A DNA stretch of 40,697 bases from a virus. Taxonomy: Duplodnaviria; Heunggongvirae; Uroviricota; Caudoviricetes. The notes below the pieces were generated by a model that was not told the DNA's origin, ran no database searches, and was given only the letters and a program-made list of their open reading frames with translations. Below, one piece after another: positions 1,963 to 16,361 of the stretch. The stretch lies in IMG/VR virus record IMGVR_UViG_2541047891_000003. One strand, 5' to 3'. Each line of letters begins with the position of its first letter. Position 1 is the stretch's first letter. The translations under genes and the position numbers were made by a program.

Positions 1963-4434
1963 TTAAAAATCAGCCTGATTCGGGATCAGTTTTTGCCAGA
2001 TAGCTGAAACGTATTTTGCCTGGTGACGAGCGTCATCAAGTGCATTATGGCGCTCACCTTCGAATGGAATAGCCGTTCTGGCATCGAAGTCTATGGCTTT
2101 CCCCAGCTCAACGATTGTGCGTACATCGCGATCGTTGTAGTAACGCCACGGGCAGGGGATCCCCTGCCGTTCGTATGAACGGCGCAAAATCGTGTTGTCG
2201 AAGTTTGCTCCATTTCCCCAGACCTGAACAAAAAATTCACCGGAGTTTTCGTCGATAAATTCCCGCAATTGTAACAGTGCATCATCTAACGGGATTTCAT
2301 CGGTCATAATGGCAGATTGCGCTTCGCGTGATTGCTTAAGCCACCATTTAATGGTGTCCCGATCAATGACTCCGCCAGCAGTTTCCAGATCGACAGTCTT
2401 ACTAAATTCCGGTCCCATATCTCCGGTTTGCGGATCGAAAAATATTGCACCTATTGAGATAATCGGGGCATCAGGATTTTTTCCCATGGTTTCAAGGTCG
2501 ATCATCAGATGAATCCCCGCTCTGCTGGTGGATGTGAGATTATGATGACCGTTCGCCTTAATTAAGGGATCTGACGCCTCGCCAGTTTCACTATCGCTGG
2601 CATGATGCTGATTGCCGCCAGTGTTCTCCTTGTGCTGATGCGCAGTGCCTTCCATTTCCTCCGGATCATTTTCCTGAACTTCAGGCTGATTCTCTTCATC
2701 GAATATTTCCTGGTATGTTGCGTCACCCATCACCGCACCACAATCAGGGCAGCTACCGCCGCCGATCTGACCGCAGGCGGTGCAGGCTTTTTCCGGCTCC
2801 TGTTGCGCTACTGGTTCAACCTGTTTCGTTTCTGGCTCGTTTTGTTGCGCATTTGGGCTGTTTTGTTCCGTTTTCTGGTCGTTCTGTTCCGATTCTTGCT
2901 GGTTCTGGTTTACAGAGTCGCGGGTTTCAATCCCCTTCACCCATTTCGGATCATTCGGGTCGCTAATCCCTGCAACAAATTCTCCGCGAGAGGCAGCAAG
3001 CAACTTATCGGCGTCAGGCTGGCTGATATTGGCTGCCTGCATAATTTTGTTTACTTCGTCAGCGGTAACTTTTACCGGCTCTGGTTGTGCGGTCGTGTCA
3101 GATGCACCAGTATTTTGTTGTGAACCTGAGTATGTACCGTTTTTGCGGGCAAAATATTCTTCTTTCGTGATTTCAGTAGCCCCTGCAGTCAGCGCCTTAT
3201 TCAGACCAGAAAGTTTGTTTGCGCGACCATATTTTTCGCCATCCTTATCTGTGAAGAGGAAGTAGAACGGCCCCTCACGCTCTACAGATGGTTCGACTTC
3301 CACTTTGCATTCGGTTTTTTCGTTGTCCGGAATTGCCGTTTCCACTGCATCAGTTTCTGGTACTGGCGACGAGAGAGTATCAGTTGCGCTCTGATTTGTT
3401 CCTTCATCTTCAAACACGCCCTTTGTAGTCAGGTATTCAGTAATGTATTTGTTCAGTGCCACAGGGTCTTTGTGAATGTCGATCGGACGTTCACGGACAA
3501 GGCCAAAAATAGTCTGGCGGTCGTAGCGAAGGGCATCAGGCTGTTTGCGCATTGATGCCGAGATACGCTTCCAGTCTTCGCGGTCGTTGTCGATAACTTC
3601 ATTTTTTGCCCAGCGATGGATGCTGCCGTCAATGTTTCCGGCATCCACATCACCAGGCCAGAGAGCGTAGGCCAGTTCGTCATCCAGTGTTTTCCATGTC
3701 TGCTTGTATTCGCGATGAATGGCAGCAATGACCGGGCTGATTTTTCCTGTTGAATTTTCAGTGTACTGTTGATTGGCTCTGGCGCGGGCGAGATCAACAA
3801 CAGACGTGTATTTTCCGGTTTCCTTGCGTTCACCTTCGCGACGTTTTTTCCAGATGCGCATCTCTGCCTGAATTTCGGGCCATTTAGCACCAGGAATACA
3901 TTTATGCTTAACCCACCCAATGGCATGCAGCTTAAGCTCCGGATACATGGCGTTAACTTCTGGCATTTTCATCAACGCTTCAACGATATGTCCGTCGAAT
4001 GTTGCCATGTCTTCCTGCAACAATTCCTGTGCGCTAATAACCATATCAACGGTGATGTTTTCACATGTGTCGAACTTAACCATGACAGCGTTCTGTACTT
4101 CAGGGGCCAGCTTGTCAAAAGTGACGTTCATCGGATCTGATTCAGTCTCAACCGGGACAAAGGAAGCAGAGTCCTCATCCCAGCGGTTTTCCTGCATATA
4201 TTCAGCATCCCAGGAATCGAGGGCAGGGCGGGGTATACCAGGTTTATCCTCGCAAACAAGAAATTTATAAGCGCAGTCCTGAGCAGCCGGATAATGTTCC
4301 AGGAATTGCCAGTGAAATTTTGCGCGGGCGCGACGTTCATCACCGGATTCAATGGCAGTGGCTACAGCGACTGCACCTTCTTCCTTTATTGCCTGTTCGT
4401 CCGGAATGGCGGCGCAAATAAAGACTTTACTCAT
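1963..4434 (-). CDS. Large putative exonuclease with a C-terminal DnaQ-like DEDDh 3'-5' exonuclease domain and a central Cys4 zinc ribbon (often annotated exodeoxyribonuclease VIII-like)
   Basis: 823-aa ORF; motifs LMIDLETMG and HNALDDARHQAKY near the C-terminus; CTACGQIGGGSCPDCG zinc ribbon; acidic Q/E-rich low-complexity linker. Confidence 0.6.
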   Translation of the reverse strand: MSKVFICAAIPDEQAIKEEGAVAVATAIESGDERRARAKFHWQFLEHYPAAQDCAYKFLVCEDKPGIPRPALDSWDAEYMQENRWDEDSASFVPVETESDPMNVTFDKLAPEVQNAVMVKFDTCENITVDMVISAQELLQEDMATFDGHIVEALMKMPEVNAMYPELKLHAIGWVKHKCIPGAKWPEIQAEMRIWKKRREGERKETGKYTSVVDLARARANQQYTENSTGKISPVIAAIHREYKQTWKTLDDELAYALWPGDVDAGNIDGSIHRWAKNEVIDNDREDWKRISASMRKQPDALRYDRQTIFGLVRERPIDIHKDPVALNKYITEYLTTKGVFEDEGTNQSATDTLSSPVPETDAVETAIPDNEKTECKVEVEPSVEREGPFYFLFTDKDGEKYGRANKLSGLNKALTAGATEITKEEYFARKNGTYSGSQQNTGASDTTAQPEPVKVTADEVNKIMQAANISQPDADKLLAASRGEFVAGISDPNDPKWVKGIETRDSVNQNQQESEQNDQKTEQNSPNAQQNEPETKQVEPVAQQEPEKACTACGQIGGGSCPDCGAVMGDATYQEIFDEENQPEVQENDPEEMEGTAHQHKENTGGNQHHASDSETGEASDPLIKANGHHNLTSTSRAGIHLMIDLETMGKNPDAPIISIGAIFFDPQTGDMGPEFSKTVDLETAGGVIDRDTIKWWLKQSREAQSAIMTDEIPLDDALLQLREFIDENSGEFFVQVWGNGANFDNTILRRSYERQGIPCPWRYYNDRDVRTIVELGKAIDFDARTAIPFEGERHNALDDARHQAKYVSAIWQKLIPNQADF

Positions 4435-4513: not shown

Positions 4514-4717
4514 TTACGGTGCTGTTTTAAGTCCTGCCGGGATTTCGTTATTATCCTGGTGAATAACTTTATCGACCGGGTAACAGTTACCGGGAATTTT
4601 CTGTTCGGTTGCTGCAGTCACACACTCCTGCATTGTCCTGTGAACACTGACTGCAATATCAACTGGCTCTCCGGAAACAAGAAAAACTGTCAGAACAAGT
4701 GCAAATGCTGTATTCAT
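4514..4717 (-). CDS. ydfD: YdfD-like small protein with an N-terminal signal/TM segment (Qin prophage lysis-protein family)
   Basis: 67-aa product MNTAFALVLTVFLVSGEPVDIAVSVHRTMQEC... from the internal ATG at 4717; lies immediately downstream of dicB as in Qin; overlaps the dicB stop. Confidence 0.65.
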   Translation of the reverse strand: MNTAFALVLTVFLVSGEPVDIAVSVHRTMQECVTAATEQKIPGNCYPVDKVIHQDNNEIPAGLKTAP

Positions 4718-4902
4718 TGCCAACATCCTTTTTGTATCGGACGTAAACGGGCCAGCATTGAAAGAATGCATATTTTATTTAATAACTCCCGTTCGTGTTT
4801 TCTCTTGTTAATGGCATCTTCAGTAAATACAGGGTTACTGATAGTGACACCAATTTCAAAACAACCTTCAGACGTATTAACGTTTGGTAATAACGTTTCC
4901 AT
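4714..4902 (-). CDS. dicB: Cell division inhibitor DicB
   Basis: 62-aa product METLLPNVNTSEGCFEIGVTISNPVFTEDAINKRKHERELLNKICILSMLARLRPIQKGCWQ, near-identical to E. coli DicB as I recall it; ATG verified at 4900-4902; the longer 97-aa track ORF is an upstream extension. Confidence 0.85.
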   Translation of the reverse strand: METLLPNVNTSEGCFEIGVTISNPVFTEDAINKRKHERELLNKICILSMLARLRPIQKGCWQ

Positions 4903-5071
4903 TATCGCGTCCTCAACAATGAATTTTGTGATGCGGTGCCTGGTGCCTCCAGGTGACGTTAACCAGTTAACAATTAACGCCGGATACAGAGAATCCACCC
5001 ATAACACTGTTTTTGGTTTTAACTGTTCCGCGTGCGCTCAGCCGCATTCACCACATCACAAAATTCACTTT

Positions 5072-5129
5072 AAAAAGGGCGGCAGAGCAGTCACGGAGTA
5101 AAACTGATACCGCCAAACGTCACCAGAAA
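5072..5129 (-). ncRNA. dicF: DicF small regulatory RNA (ftsZ-targeting sRNA)
   Basis: Minus-strand sequence TTTCTGGTGACGTTTGGCGGTATCAGTTTTACTCCGTGACTGCTCTGCCGCCCTTTTT matches the DicF sequence I recall; ends in a GC stem plus T-run; about 170 nt upstream of dicB as in Qin. Confidence 0.85.
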
Positions 5130-5463
5130 ATTGATAACAGAGGGCGTTGCAGCGGAGTTGTCACTTAAGCGTATGGTCAACCTGACAACCCGGTGTCCTC
5201 AACGGGGAAGGAATAACCCCGCCATACTTACCGCCGCGCCATTTCGCGGAGTGCCACAACCGGAAGCGCACGGTCGACGAAAATTTAACGACAGGCTATC
5301 TATGAACCAGCTACCTCGCCGTGCGCTTTCGCGTTATGGTCTGACTTTTCAGGGAAATATCCTTTCAGTAAACTGTCAGTGCCGGATGCTCACCCGTGTC
5401 CGGCGCACGCACTCCACCTCACCCGTGGAGAACTCCTTAATCACCAACCCTCAGGAGGGTGAA

Positions 5464-5739
5464 ATGTCGACTGAAAATGATGAAATCATTAACTCCCTGA
5501 TACGCCAGATTAATAATTTTGATAAAGCATTGCAGCATGCTGCGGCGCGTAGTGATATAACTCTTTTAGCAATTTCATTTCTTGCATCTGTTATGGATAA
5601 AAATGAAGTCGTACGACAGAGTCTTGTTGATTATATCGACTCGCTTCAACCCGGCACTTTCAATCATGAGAGCTTCAATCATGAGAAAGAGCATGTTAAG
5701 TCTGTAATTAATTCTCTTATTTTGAATCAAAAGAATTAA
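5464..5739 (+). CDS. Hypothetical 91-aa protein encoded antisense to the dicB operon
   Basis: ATG at 5464 preceded by a strong RBS (AGGAGGGTGAA); product MSTENDEIINSLIRQINNFDKALQ...; no family recognised; the N-terminal extension of the track ORF starting at 5131 is probably not coding. Confidence 0.5.
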   Translation: MSTENDEIINSLIRQINNFDKALQHAAARSDITLLAISFLASVMDKNEVVRQSLVDYIDSLQPGTFNHESFNHEKEHVKSVINSLILNQKN

Positions 5740-6037
5740 TGCTTTTTGTTGCAAAGTAATTTTCAAGGGGTTCTATTCGAATCCCTTTCTTTTTCATTAA
5801 CAAGCCAAACCCCTTATCAATGATGTCCATTAGATCCAGGAAGTGTTTTTCATGTAAATCCTGGTTATCAGAGAGCTGCTTCTCTTCGTACAGACCGATA
5901 AAGGCACGACGCACGTTACCGGATATAGTATCGATGGTTTCTTTTTCTACGGTACTCAGGTCAAGAGTCGCCAGTTGGGAACGAACTATATTCGCTGCCA
6001 TTTCCTGGAATTGCATTGGTAAATCTTTAAATTCCAT
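5717..6037 (-). CDS. Hypothetical 106-aa protein within the ydfABC-dicF-dicB operon
   Basis: ATG at 6037 with GAGG about 8 nt upstream, 22 nt after the ydfC stop (coupled arrangement); no family recognised. Confidence 0.55.
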   Translation of the reverse strand: MEFKDLPMQFQEMAANIVRSQLATLDLSTVEKETIDTISGNVRRAFIGLYEEKQLSDNQDLHEKHFLDLMDIIDKGFGLLMKKKGIRIEPLENYFATKSINSFDSK

Positions 6038-6059
6038 TATTAGCCTCGTTGGTTAGCTA

Positions 6060-6278
6060 TTAACGTGGGTATGTAATCATTCTGGCAATGCTTAATGCCG
6101 CTGCTTTTTGCAGCCTGGTGATATCCTGCTCCAGAGCGGACAGATTTTCAGTCTGCTTAGCCCTGGCTTCATTGGCCCATTTCAGATCCTGCGCTGCATT
6201 AATTTTCTGGCGCATCCACTCATAAAGTTCATCATCGGTATAGTCTGGCGCGATGATGACGGGTTCTCGTTTCTGCAT
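6060..6278 (-). CDS. ydfC: YdfC-like small protein
   Basis: 72-aa ORF in the position and size of Qin ydfC, directly downstream of ydfB. Confidence 0.6.
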   Translation of the reverse strand: MQKREPVIIAPDYTDDELYEWMRQKINAAQDLKWANEARAKQTENLSALEQDITRLQKAAALSIARMITYPR

Positions 6279-6307: not shown

Positions 6308-6436
6308 TCAGCCGTTAGATTTTGCCGAACTGGAAAGCGCCTGTTTAAACTCACTGAAGCTGAGAGCTTCTTCGCCTTCGGCAAGGCCTTCGAAGTATTC
6401 TTCGTAAGCCTTTTCCATGATTGCGTCGAAATCCAT
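6308..6436 (-). CDS. ydfB: YdfB-like small protein (42 aa)
   Basis: Hand-translated MDFDAIMEKAYEEYFEGLAEGEEALSFSEFKQALSSSAKSNG; not in the ORF track because it is under 60 aa; start 1 nt after the ydfA stop. Confidence 0.6.
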   Translation of the reverse strand: MDFDAIMEKAYEEYFEGLAEGEEALSFSEFKQALSSSAKSNG

Positions 6437-6437
6437 A

Positions 6438-6593
6438 TCACTCACCTGAATTTCTTTCCAGCCAGCGACGCGCGCCAGATTCGGTTTTAAACGTTTTGCT
6501 TTTGGTATACGTCATCGCGGTGAACGTACCGTCCTGGTTTGGGAACACGCCGTATACCAGAGATTCGTTGTTGCCAAGATCGATAGTATCCAT
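6438..6593 (-). CDS. ydfA: YdfA-like small protein (51 aa)
   Basis: Hand-translated MDTIDLGNNESLVYGVFPNQDGTFTAMTYTKSKTFKTESGARRWLERNSGE; length and sequence consistent with Qin YdfA from memory; not in the ORF track. Confidence 0.65.
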   Translation of the reverse strand: MDTIDLGNNESLVYGVFPNQDGTFTAMTYTKSKTFKTESGARRWLERNSGE

Positions 6594-11468: not shown

Positions 11469-11679
11469 TTTTATACCTTTTGTGTTGTGTGAAGGAGCAG
11501 TATAGTCAGAAATGAGACAAGTGAAAGGGGATAGAAAGTAATAGTTTGTTTTTGTAGAATTGCTGCGGGTGCTTGAGGCTATCTGCCTCGGGCATGAACA
11601 CCAACGGCAGATAGAGAAAAGCCCCAGTTAACATTACGCGTCCGGCAAGACGCTTAACATTAATCTGAGGCATATCTGT

Positions 11680-11880
11680 ATGCGACACATAAAGATTAGC
11701 CTCTTAACAGTAAGAAATCAACTAACAGGGGGCTGTAATGCGAAGGAGCTATGTGTTTTGTCTGGTGGTGGTTTGCATCACCATTCTGATATTTGTCGGG
11801 ATGGTTCGCGGTTCGCTATGCGAGCTGCACATCAGGCAGGGAAACACAGAGCTTTCAGCGTATTTAGCCTACGAAGTTGA
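11680..11880 (+). CDS. mok: mok-like overlapping reading frame of a hok-family locus
   Basis: 66-codon ORF starting upstream of, and overlapping in another frame, the hok-like toxin ORF, as in hok/mok/sok loci. Confidence 0.4.
   Translation: MRHIKISLLTVRNQLTGGCNAKELCVLSGGGLHHHSDICRDGSRFAMRAAHQAGKHRAFSVFSLRS
11693..11721 (-). promoter_or_regulatory. sok: Candidate promoter for a Sok-like antisense RNA (minus strand: -35 TTGATT, 17-bp spacer, -10 TAATCT)
   Basis: Promoter-like hexamers on the minus strand positioned so the transcript would be complementary to the mok start region. Confidence 0.35.
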
Positions 11881-16051: not shown

Positions 16052-16127
16052 GGCCCTTTAGCTCAGTGGTGAGAGCGAGCGACTCATAATCGCCAGGTCG
16101 CTGGTTCAAATCCAGCAAGGGCCACCA
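16052..16127 (+). tRNA. ileZ: tRNA-Ile2 (anticodon CAU, lysidine type; could alternatively be tRNA-Met)
   Basis: Cloverleaf with acceptor GGCCCTT/AAGGGCC, anticodon loop CTCATAA, T-loop TTCAAAT, CCA end; close to E. coli ileX as I recall it. Confidence 0.8.
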
Positions 16128-16128
16128 A

Positions 16129-16205
16129 CCGCCACTAGCTCATCAGGAAAGAGCGTCAACCCTTTAAGTTGAGAGTGCGAGGTTCGAGTCCCCGGTGGCG
16201 GTCCA
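16129..16205 (+). tRNA. tRNA with atypical anticodon loop CCTTTAA (anticodon UUU = Lys if canonical; C at position 33)
   Basis: Acceptor CCGCCAC/GTGGCGG, D-arm GCTC..GAGC, anticodon stem TCAAC/GTTGA, T-loop TTCGAGT, CCA end; identity uncertain. Confidence 0.6.
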
Positions 16206-16207
16206 GT

Positions 16208-16283
<76 letters not shown>

Positions 16284-16286
16284 TAT

Positions 16287-16361
<75 letters not shown>

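Follow-up and report, generated by a model that had tools for sequence, protein, structure and literature searches.

In the Rac prophage of Escherichia coli K-12 (locus L195, NC_000913.3 1418405-1419311), the genes racR, ydaG, and ydaF lie on one strand, and the superinfection exclusion gene sieB lies on the opposite strand, where it overlaps ydaF by 4 base pairs (bp). A noncoding stretch, the small RNA KilS, and kilR, which codes for an inhibitor of the cell-division protein FtsZ, follow. The Qin prophage of the same strain carries the dicBF operon. Few products of cryptic prophages have been studied as thoroughly as DicF and DicB, yet the ydfC-dicF interval has so far been regarded as a spacer that is not translated. 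Leaders that hide the Shine-Dalgarno (SD) sequence are known from RNA thermometers and from translationally gated toxin messenger RNAs such as hok. Phage morons, of which HK97 gene 15 and the lambda genes bor and lom are examples, are defined in PMC3594210. Here, we analyze the ydfC-dicF interval of a 40,697-nucleotide (nt) Caudoviricetes sequence (IMG/VR record IMGVR_UViG_2541047891_000003, the whole of which we call the window). This interval contains two convergent open reading frames (ORFs): ORF106 on the minus strand, in line with the early-left operon, and ORF91 on the plus strand, antisense to it. On balance, we favor the view that the interval is a mosaic accessory segment of this operon, composed of ORF106 and an antisense, moron-type cassette in a hotspot of cargo exchange.

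An earlier note on this DNA, made from the letters alone, had pointed to two unrecognized genes in about 930 bp between ydfC and dicF. The distance from the ydfC stop codon to the 5′ end of dicF is indeed 931 bp, and all coordinates proposed for the two genes proved correct. ORF106 (5717-6037, minus strand) starts with an ATG located 22 nt past the stop codon of ydfC (6060-6278, minus strand) and preceded by a GAGG SD motif, so that the two genes are closely spaced without overlapping. ORF91 (5464-5739, plus strand) codes for 91 amino acids (aa). The near-consensus ribosome-binding site (RBS) that the note had ascribed to it is an AGGAGG at 5453-5458, 5 nt before the ATG. The 3′ ends of the two genes overlap by 23 bp (5717-5739), again as described. 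Many Qin-like prophages carry these ORFs, annotated only as hypothetical proteins (RefSeq WP_000102678.1 and WP_000394534.1), so that the objection foreseen in the note, known annotations in characterized Qin-like prophages, does not apply; no paper mentions either accession, and the papers on dicBF describe neither these ORFs nor an antisense promoter. The DNA of ORF91 is found in 198 of 5426 complete E. coli genomes.

Both ORFs are real genes and more than chance reading frames. Compared with a 79%-identical allele from metagenomes, ORF91 has a ratio of nonsynonymous to synonymous substitution rates (dN/dS) of 0.30, the lowest of all six frames, and the 43 nucleotide differences between the two alleles introduce neither stop codons nor insertions or deletions (indels). 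A tandem 15-nt repeat in ORF91 (FNHES/FNHEK, 5659-5688, plus strand) is present in one, two, or three units across prophages. This variation preserves the frame and gives alleles of 86, 91, and 96 aa. Homologues at 28-36% identity are of almost equal length. For ORF106, comparison with 124-aa homologues gives dN/dS values of 0.21-0.32 in its own frame. An A/G polymorphism at 5719 affects both genes: it converts the TAA stop codon of ORF106 to CAA (Gln), which extends the protein to 109 or 110 aa and the overlap from 23 to 32 bp, and it changes Ile86 of ORF91 to Val. Longer versions of ORF91, namely, the open frame from 5131 to 5739 (202 aa) and an annotated form of 145 or 146 aa, were rejected as coding. 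The 77-aa allele discussed below has a stop codon directly before the shared start position, and a divergent copy of the upstream sequence contains frame-breaking indels of 1 and 2 nt. RefSeq is inconsistent on this point, listing either 91 aa or 145/146 aa, with the longer version beginning at an upstream ATG in the noncoding spacer (5302-5739).

On the strength of profile matches, we classify ORF106 as an early-left-operon gene that codes for a C-terminally shortened version of a widespread 124-aa phage protein. Its residues 1-106 match positions 1-106 of the 124 positions of phrog_6937, a family of 124-aa phage proteins, with an expectation value (E) of 3e-68. ORF106 is 83-88% identical to such proteins and lacks the last 18 codons of the usual form. 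Its N-terminus also matches phrogs 1363, 2151, and 9419. The 235 homologues, with lengths between 106 and 135 aa, are all unnamed, and searches with ORF106 in Pfam, NCBIfam, and PADLOC returned matches at chance level only. The N-terminal ~55 residues (MEFKDLP...) are common to all operon-strand genes found in this position, and the sequences diverge beyond this point.

The boundaries of the segment were defined by two comparisons. The first is with K-12 Qin, where ydfA, ydfB, ydfC, the 320 bp upstream of dicF, dicF, dicB, and ydfD are ~96% identical to the window and occur in the same order. The alignment to K-12 Qin that the earlier note had proposed shows one clean indel of 590 bp (5450-6039), which runs from the SD sequence of ORF91 to the start codon of ORF106 and is flanked by 96%-identical DNA. 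K-12 Qin is therefore without both ORFs and without the SD part of the leader of ORF91. The 320 bp beside dicF (5130-5449) are the ordinary conserved ydfC-dicF spacer, found in ~4300 genomes. The second comparison is with prophages that contain the 124-aa gene and no plus-strand ORF. Here, the indel spans 5428-5720 and consists of ORF91 by itself, which stands in place of the last 18 codons of the 124-aa gene. The suggestion in the earlier note of an inserted two-gene module is thus borne out with respect to the insertion and only half right with respect to the module, because against these prophages ORF91 is the sole insertion. The location of the indel boundaries at gene edges supports the interpretation as a mosaic cassette.

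The same slot is occupied in different ways in other prophages. An operon gene of 135 aa is paired with an antisense cargo of 77 aa and an overlap of 23 bp in the O157-type allele (650 genomes). Other pairs consist of a 133-aa operon gene with a 92-aa cargo (41-bp overlap), a 126-aa gene with a 73-aa cargo (11-bp overlap), a 201-aa gene with a 63-aa cargo (23-bp overlap), and a 124-aa gene with a 148-aa cargo without overlap. The 148-aa cargo resembles a membrane protein by eye; its identification as SieB was tried and rejected. Further states are the 124-aa operon gene without cargo and, in K-12-type prophages, neither operon gene nor cargo. The C-terminus of the ORF106 type is seen with the 73-aa cargo, with the 148-aa cargo, or with none. 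In a Rac-like prophage of Salmonella and in several P2/P4-like prophages, relatives of ORF91 likewise run opposite to the early operon, and there they overlap by 41 bp with unrelated neighbors, which are either a 71-aa protein or helix-turn-helix proteins of 171-214 aa. Three unrelated genes are convergent with 92-93-aa relatives of ORF91, and the proteins they encode have similar C-terminal tails (...LSxELLKK.., 13-20 residues). This tail lies opposite the 3′ end of the cargo, within a 41-bp overlap in each case (L012 3362-3402; L019 4242-4282; L022 4239-4279; L011 489-529). Such shared tails on otherwise unrelated neighbors indicate that the overlap travels with the cassette. These sequence relationships argue that ORF91 is an autonomous single-gene cassette and suggest that its pairing with ORF106 reflects their adjacency between two recombination flanks.

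The same observations bear on the idea that ORF91 and ORF106 work together as a two-gene module. Examples would be a toxin and the antidote to it or an effector and its cognate immunity protein; the antisense ORF would then have evolved in concert with the C-terminal portion of the operon gene. Such a module would agree with the gain or loss of both genes as one 590-bp unit relative to K-12, with their low GC content, with the recurrence of the convergent 3′ overlap, and with the fact that each cargo type in the sampled Qin-like loci is tied to one C-terminal type. This linkage can also be explained by adjacency between two recombination flanks, and the variable partnerships on both sides, with ORF106-type C-termini joined to other cargoes or to none and ORF91 relatives joined to unrelated proteins, are difficult to reconcile with co-evolution. 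Moreover, the two genes converge and are not co-transcribed, and neither PADLOC nor toxin-antitoxin families provided a match. We consider a two-gene module unlikely. An obligate pair or toxin-antitoxin module was rejected because the 124-aa gene is also found by itself or beside different cargo and because ORF91 relatives have unrelated partners; searches for two-gene defense or toxin-antitoxin families in PADLOC, Pfam, and NCBIfam gave chance-level matches only. A type I toxin-antitoxin system was also rejected, since ORF91 is not a small hydrophobic peptide but a hydrophilic protein of 91 aa that is predicted to form a three-helix bundle.

ORF91 itself is, by full-length homology, a distant member of phrog_18692, a family of 92-aa phage proteins. 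The direct match of ORF91 to the hidden Markov model of this family is weak (E = 0.022, profile positions 6-89 of 92). A HMMER search with an ORF91 profile against 1.84 billion protein representatives returned one true distant relative, P0019 (E = 9e-5), and two repetitive false positives. P0019 is encoded in a P2-like prophage, is 36% identical to ORF91 over 90 residues (BLASTP, E = 5e-10), and matches phrog_18692 with E = 8e-21. ORF91 is also homologous to the 92-aa cargo paired with the 133-aa operon gene (28% identity, E = 6e-5). In a profile search, the family comprises 44 cluster representatives, which are restricted to Escherichia or Salmonella and are all unnamed. Whether the prophage is Qin-like, Rac-like, or P2/P4-like, genes of this family always point against an early operon. 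An AlphaFold model of ORF91 predicts three helices with a predicted local distance difference test score (pLDDT) of 74; a second model scored 66. The protein is hydrophilic and contains no membrane segments. Fold searches with both models gave no functional clue, and sequence searches in Pfam, NCBIfam, PADLOC (chance level only), and the PDB gave no match. A tblastn search of 50,697 deposited phages found no match either; a word-indexed search recovered E. coli copies only, and a scan of viral contigs for related loci recovered near-identical copies only. Among PHROGs, ORF91, ORF106, and the other cargoes match families without assigned function only, and Pfam and PADLOC searches with the other cargo proteins found nothing.

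The cassette reading gains weight from the ~83 nt that precede ORF91 (5381-5463, plus strand), which make up a conserved structured leader. In P2/P4-like and Rac-like prophages, the sequence that precedes genes of the ORF91 family shares 71-82% identity with the dicF spacer of the window. The final ~85 nt ahead of the start codon remain conserved even in loci whose more distant upstream DNA is unrelated. The same leader with its SD sequence stands ahead of at least six unrelated ORFs, which code for the ORF91 family (91-93 aa), a 77-aa protein (phrog_10348), a 73-aa protein (phrog_7249), a protein of 63-69 aa (phrog_2605), a 96-aa protein, and a proline-rich peptide of 30-32 aa. RNAalifold analysis of 20 distinct leaders revealed three helices. 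Hairpin A pairs 5381-5389 with 5396-5404, hairpin B pairs 5412-5417 with 5425-5430, and in hairpin C, an anti-SD sequence CUCCU (5433-5437) pairs with AGGAG (5453-5457) of the SD sequence. Across the 20 leaders, 96.5% of the cells are paired; this value is reached in 0 of 500 shuffles, and slid controls range from 34 to 51%. Compensatory double changes occur in 10 cells, among them a switch between UA and AU in the anti-SD helix (13 versus 6 sequences). The plus-strand sequence pairs in 386 of 400 cells and the minus-strand sequence in 345 of 400; the z scores for folding of the leader in the window are -2.66 (plus strand) and -0.48 (minus strand). The preference for the plus strand is nonetheless moderate, because it originates largely from two invariant wobble pairs and one C/U column.

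A search of positions 5000-6100 against Rfam identified DicF only; the leader had no match at the gathering score or with E < 5. Assigning DicF or C4 RNA to the leader was tried and rejected. Among GTDB representative genomes, the leader was detected only in Escherichia albertii and in two contigs that bear the titles Chryseobacterium and Collinsella. One IMG/VR contig (L168) contains two leader copies in opposite orientations, at 157 (plus strand) and 4691 (minus strand), ahead of cargo ORFs of 69 and 96 aa.

Could this element act on the minus strand alone, as a processing or stabilizing structure in the ydfABC-dicF precursor, with the plus-strand ORFs as silent passengers or annotation artifacts? 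The region 5381-5463 is present without cargo in most dicF-bearing genomes, some single substitutions generate G-U pairs on the minus strand only, the neighboring 5′ block probably functions on the minus strand, and no strong plus-strand promoter was found. What such a structure would leave unaccounted for is the coding signal of ORF91, with its dN/dS of 0.30, its in-frame repeat alleles, and its homologues of the same length at 28-36% identity, as well as the conserved SD-ATG junction ahead of six unrelated ORFs. In addition, the helix with compensatory variation is the one that contains the SD sequence, and the element folds markedly better than shuffled sequences on the plus strand only. 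An exclusively minus-strand role is therefore very unlikely in our judgment.

A more far-reaching interpretation takes the leader as an undescribed cis-regulatory RNA and as a shared plug-and-play expression platform. Such a platform, common to enterobacterial prophages, would keep interchangeable small proteins under a translational lock in the lysogen, and a phage-related signal would lead to their release or silencing. A candidate signal would be the fully complementary transcript of the early operon, either by pairing with the leader or by triggering cleavage by RNase III. The cargoes would then comprise ORF91 and at least five unrelated families, and these might constitute a new set of exclusion, defense, or host-modulating effectors beside DicF/DicB and KilS/KilR. 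We put this proposal forward as tentative and rather doubtful.

Candidate start and stop signals for the plus-strand unit were found on both sides of ORF91. A sigma-70-like promoter candidate at 5346-5374 combines a -35 element TTTTCA (5346-5351), a 17-nt spacer, and a -10 element TAAACT (5369-5374). With 8 of 12 consensus positions, this candidate is weak; its inferred start would be near 5381. TAAACT is located 7 nt before hairpin A. A TAnnnT hexamer is located at this distance, 7 nt before CCGGATG, in most independent upstream contexts, some of which are unrelated, and three copies have an extended TG. At the other end, a consensus scan located a terminator-like hairpin with a T-run (5765-5797, plus strand, -11.6 kcal/mol) inside ORF106, 26 nt past the stop codon of ORF91. 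A second terminator-like hairpin with a T-run (6083-6110, plus strand) lies antisense inside ydfC and is present in all Qin-like alleles that we examined. Both hairpins fall within conserved coding sequence of the opposite strand.

The geometry of these elements permits an idea raised in the earlier note, namely, that convergent transcription could regulate dicF and dicB. Transcription of a plus-strand unit from near 5381 would run into that of the operon before the latter reaches dicF, and judging from this layout, an effect on dicF/dicB is possible. In its strongest form, this idea makes the plus-strand unit mainly regulatory: convergent transcription and antisense RNA across ORF106 and ydfC would damp leaky read-through into the toxic dicF and dicB, and the cargo would be secondary. 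As seen from the operon, the unit begins upstream of dicF and is oriented against the direction of transcription, and cargo-free alleles such as that of K-12 retain hairpins A and B together with the -10-like hexamer. Furthermore, dicF and dicB are toxic when overexpressed, the operon is spontaneously on in a subpopulation of cells, and RNase III acts on its transcript (PMC10448788). On the other hand, the promoter is weak by sequence, and a data set of K-12 small-RNA sequencing lists no candidate in the ydfC-dicF interval. A primarily regulatory unit also leaves unexplained the purifying selection on ORF91 and the conserved spacing of the SD sequence ahead of six unrelated ORFs. We judge it improbable that regulation is the main role of this unit; a regulatory effect would be compatible with the mosaic cassette rather than exclusive of it.

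Returning to the mosaic segment that we favor, the interval would be built of two separable parts. ORF106 would be read together with ydfABC on the minus strand. The backward-facing cassette would consist of the weak, promoter-like -10 element, the ~83-nt leader with its stable hairpin at the 5′ end and its SD-pairing helix at the other, ORF91, and the terminator-like hairpin inside the opposing gene. The conserved leader and, at the opposite end, the 5′ half of the ORF106-type gene, also conserved, would serve as recombination flanks, which would explain why unrelated small ORFs are found behind the same leader in different prophages. The reading frame of the operon gene would continue into the cassette up to the first stop codon, which would account for the 3′ overlap. 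The analogy to sieB of K-12 Rac suggests that ORF91 is most likely made from the repressed prophage. Its translation may be gated by the SD-pairing helix of the leader, and its production may be shut off once the operon is transcribed across it upon induction. Our best guess for ORF91, again drawn from the analogy, is a role that benefits the lysogen, for example, by the exclusion of other phages. The sequence data establish the anatomy of the locus, its coding status, distribution, and mosaic boundaries, and the structure of the leader; use of the promoter, timing of expression, the way in which the leader works, any influence on dicF/dicB, and the function of the protein are inferences.

Several observations weigh against this proposal. 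In 5130-5463, no plus-strand promoter reaches the scan threshold of 9 of 12 consensus positions, the -35 element of the candidate is poor, and in a few contexts, the hexamer is 5-11 nt away or absent. The terminator sequence at 5765-5797 is also conserved where ORF91 is absent and may be coincidental. Rac sieB does not have the ~83-nt leader. Some single mismatches in the leader favor the minus strand, and K-12-type prophages (66 of the distinct sequences sampled) keep hairpins A and B without SD sequence or cargo; a role without cargo is therefore conceivable for the leader or for the complementary stretch of the operon transcript. Finally, each cargo type was seen with one C-terminal type among the sampled Qin-like prophages, so that a functional pairing of the two genes keeps a small probability.

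The remainder of the operon is of the Qin/Rac type. This repressor-controlled early-left operon of a lambdoid prophage occupies the minus strand in the order ydfA-ydfB-ydfC-...-dicF-dicB. It begins with ydfA (6438-6593) and ydfB (6308-6445) and continues past ORF106 to the gene of the small RNA DicF (5077-5128; Rfam RF00039, 76.7 bits, full length 1-52) and to dicB (4714-4902), which are followed by ydfD and the gene for an 823-aa exonuclease. Between dicF and the leader of ORF91 lies a conserved noncoding block (5143-5380) that is 96% identical to K-12 Qin; in it, 5261-5273 and 5319-5331 pair to a long hairpin. Within this hairpin, at ~5266, falls the 5′ end that RNase III is reported to generate for a 190-nt DicF species (PMC10448788). 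The same long hairpin sequence is found upstream of KilS in K-12 Rac (L195 5480-5560). The block probably belongs to the DicF precursor and acts on the operon strand, that is, probably the minus strand.

A version of this ~240-bp block is also present in P2/P4-like prophages without DicF (L022-L024, ~3660-3920), with 71-82% identity; several small RNAs of prophages may share this block as a precursor or processing module. Where Qin has the DicF terminator, these loci contain a terminator hairpin with a U-run (L022 3621-3638, minus strand; also L023 and L024), which suggests an unannotated small RNA in the position of DicF. The C4 antisense RNA (Rfam RF01695) is located 500-900 nt further along the operon in the P2/P4-like loci. 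Elsewhere in the window, Rfam detected a sok antitoxin RNA (RF01794, 98.2 bits, 11567-11740, plus strand), which implies a hok/sok-type locus in the same prophage, and a cluster of four tRNA genes (16052-16358, plus strand).

What follows from this analysis depends on which of these proposals holds. If the cargoes are expressed in lysogens, they would be candidates for new small phage-exclusion or host-modulating proteins, and the leader would be a new element of translational control. The plus-strand unit could affect how tightly dicF and dicB are silenced, which would matter for ST131-type and O157 strains that carry these alleles. If none of these proposals holds, ORF91 and ORF106 would be two ordinary hypothetical prophage genes.

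How does this locus compare with the systems described at the outset? Like leaders that hide the SD sequence, the leader of ORF91 contains an upstream CUCC that pairs with the GGAG of the RBS, in a helix maintained by compensatory change. It differs in that no Rfam family matches it and in that its cargoes are not small hydrophobic toxins. The resemblance to morons begins with the fact that ORF91 is added DNA: positions 5450-6039 are absent from K-12 Qin, and positions 5428-5720 are absent from prophages with the 124-aa gene only. The GC content of ORF91 (0.35) deviates from that of the window (0.50), although ORF106 (0.38) and dicB (0.37) are also low; ydfC (0.48) and the leader (0.63) complete this comparison. 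As in morons, one small gene is accompanied by putative signals for start and stop, and its orientation would allow expression from a repressed prophage. The candidate promoter and terminator of ORF91 are only weak consensus matches, and the cassette differs from morons in that it lies within an early regulatory operon rather than in the late region. A conserved structured leader that is common to unrelated cargoes is outside the moron concept.

The comparison with Rac is one of position and orientation alone. ORF91 has no similarity to SieB (BLASTP E = 4.7) and no membrane segments, and the overlap measures 23 bp here versus 4 bp in Rac. In both prophages, the early-left operon opens with a DUF1391 gene, ydaF in Rac and its counterpart ydfA here. 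In both, an opposite-strand gene converges on an operon gene with a 3′ overlap, and a noncoding stretch with the same long hairpin, a small RNA, and a division inhibitor follow. ORF91 occupies the slot of sieB, and DicF and dicB look like the positional counterparts of KilS and kilR. The region regarded as a spacer in the dicBF operon is, in many natural prophages, a variable slot for backward-facing genes, and it is the same slot that holds sieB in Rac.

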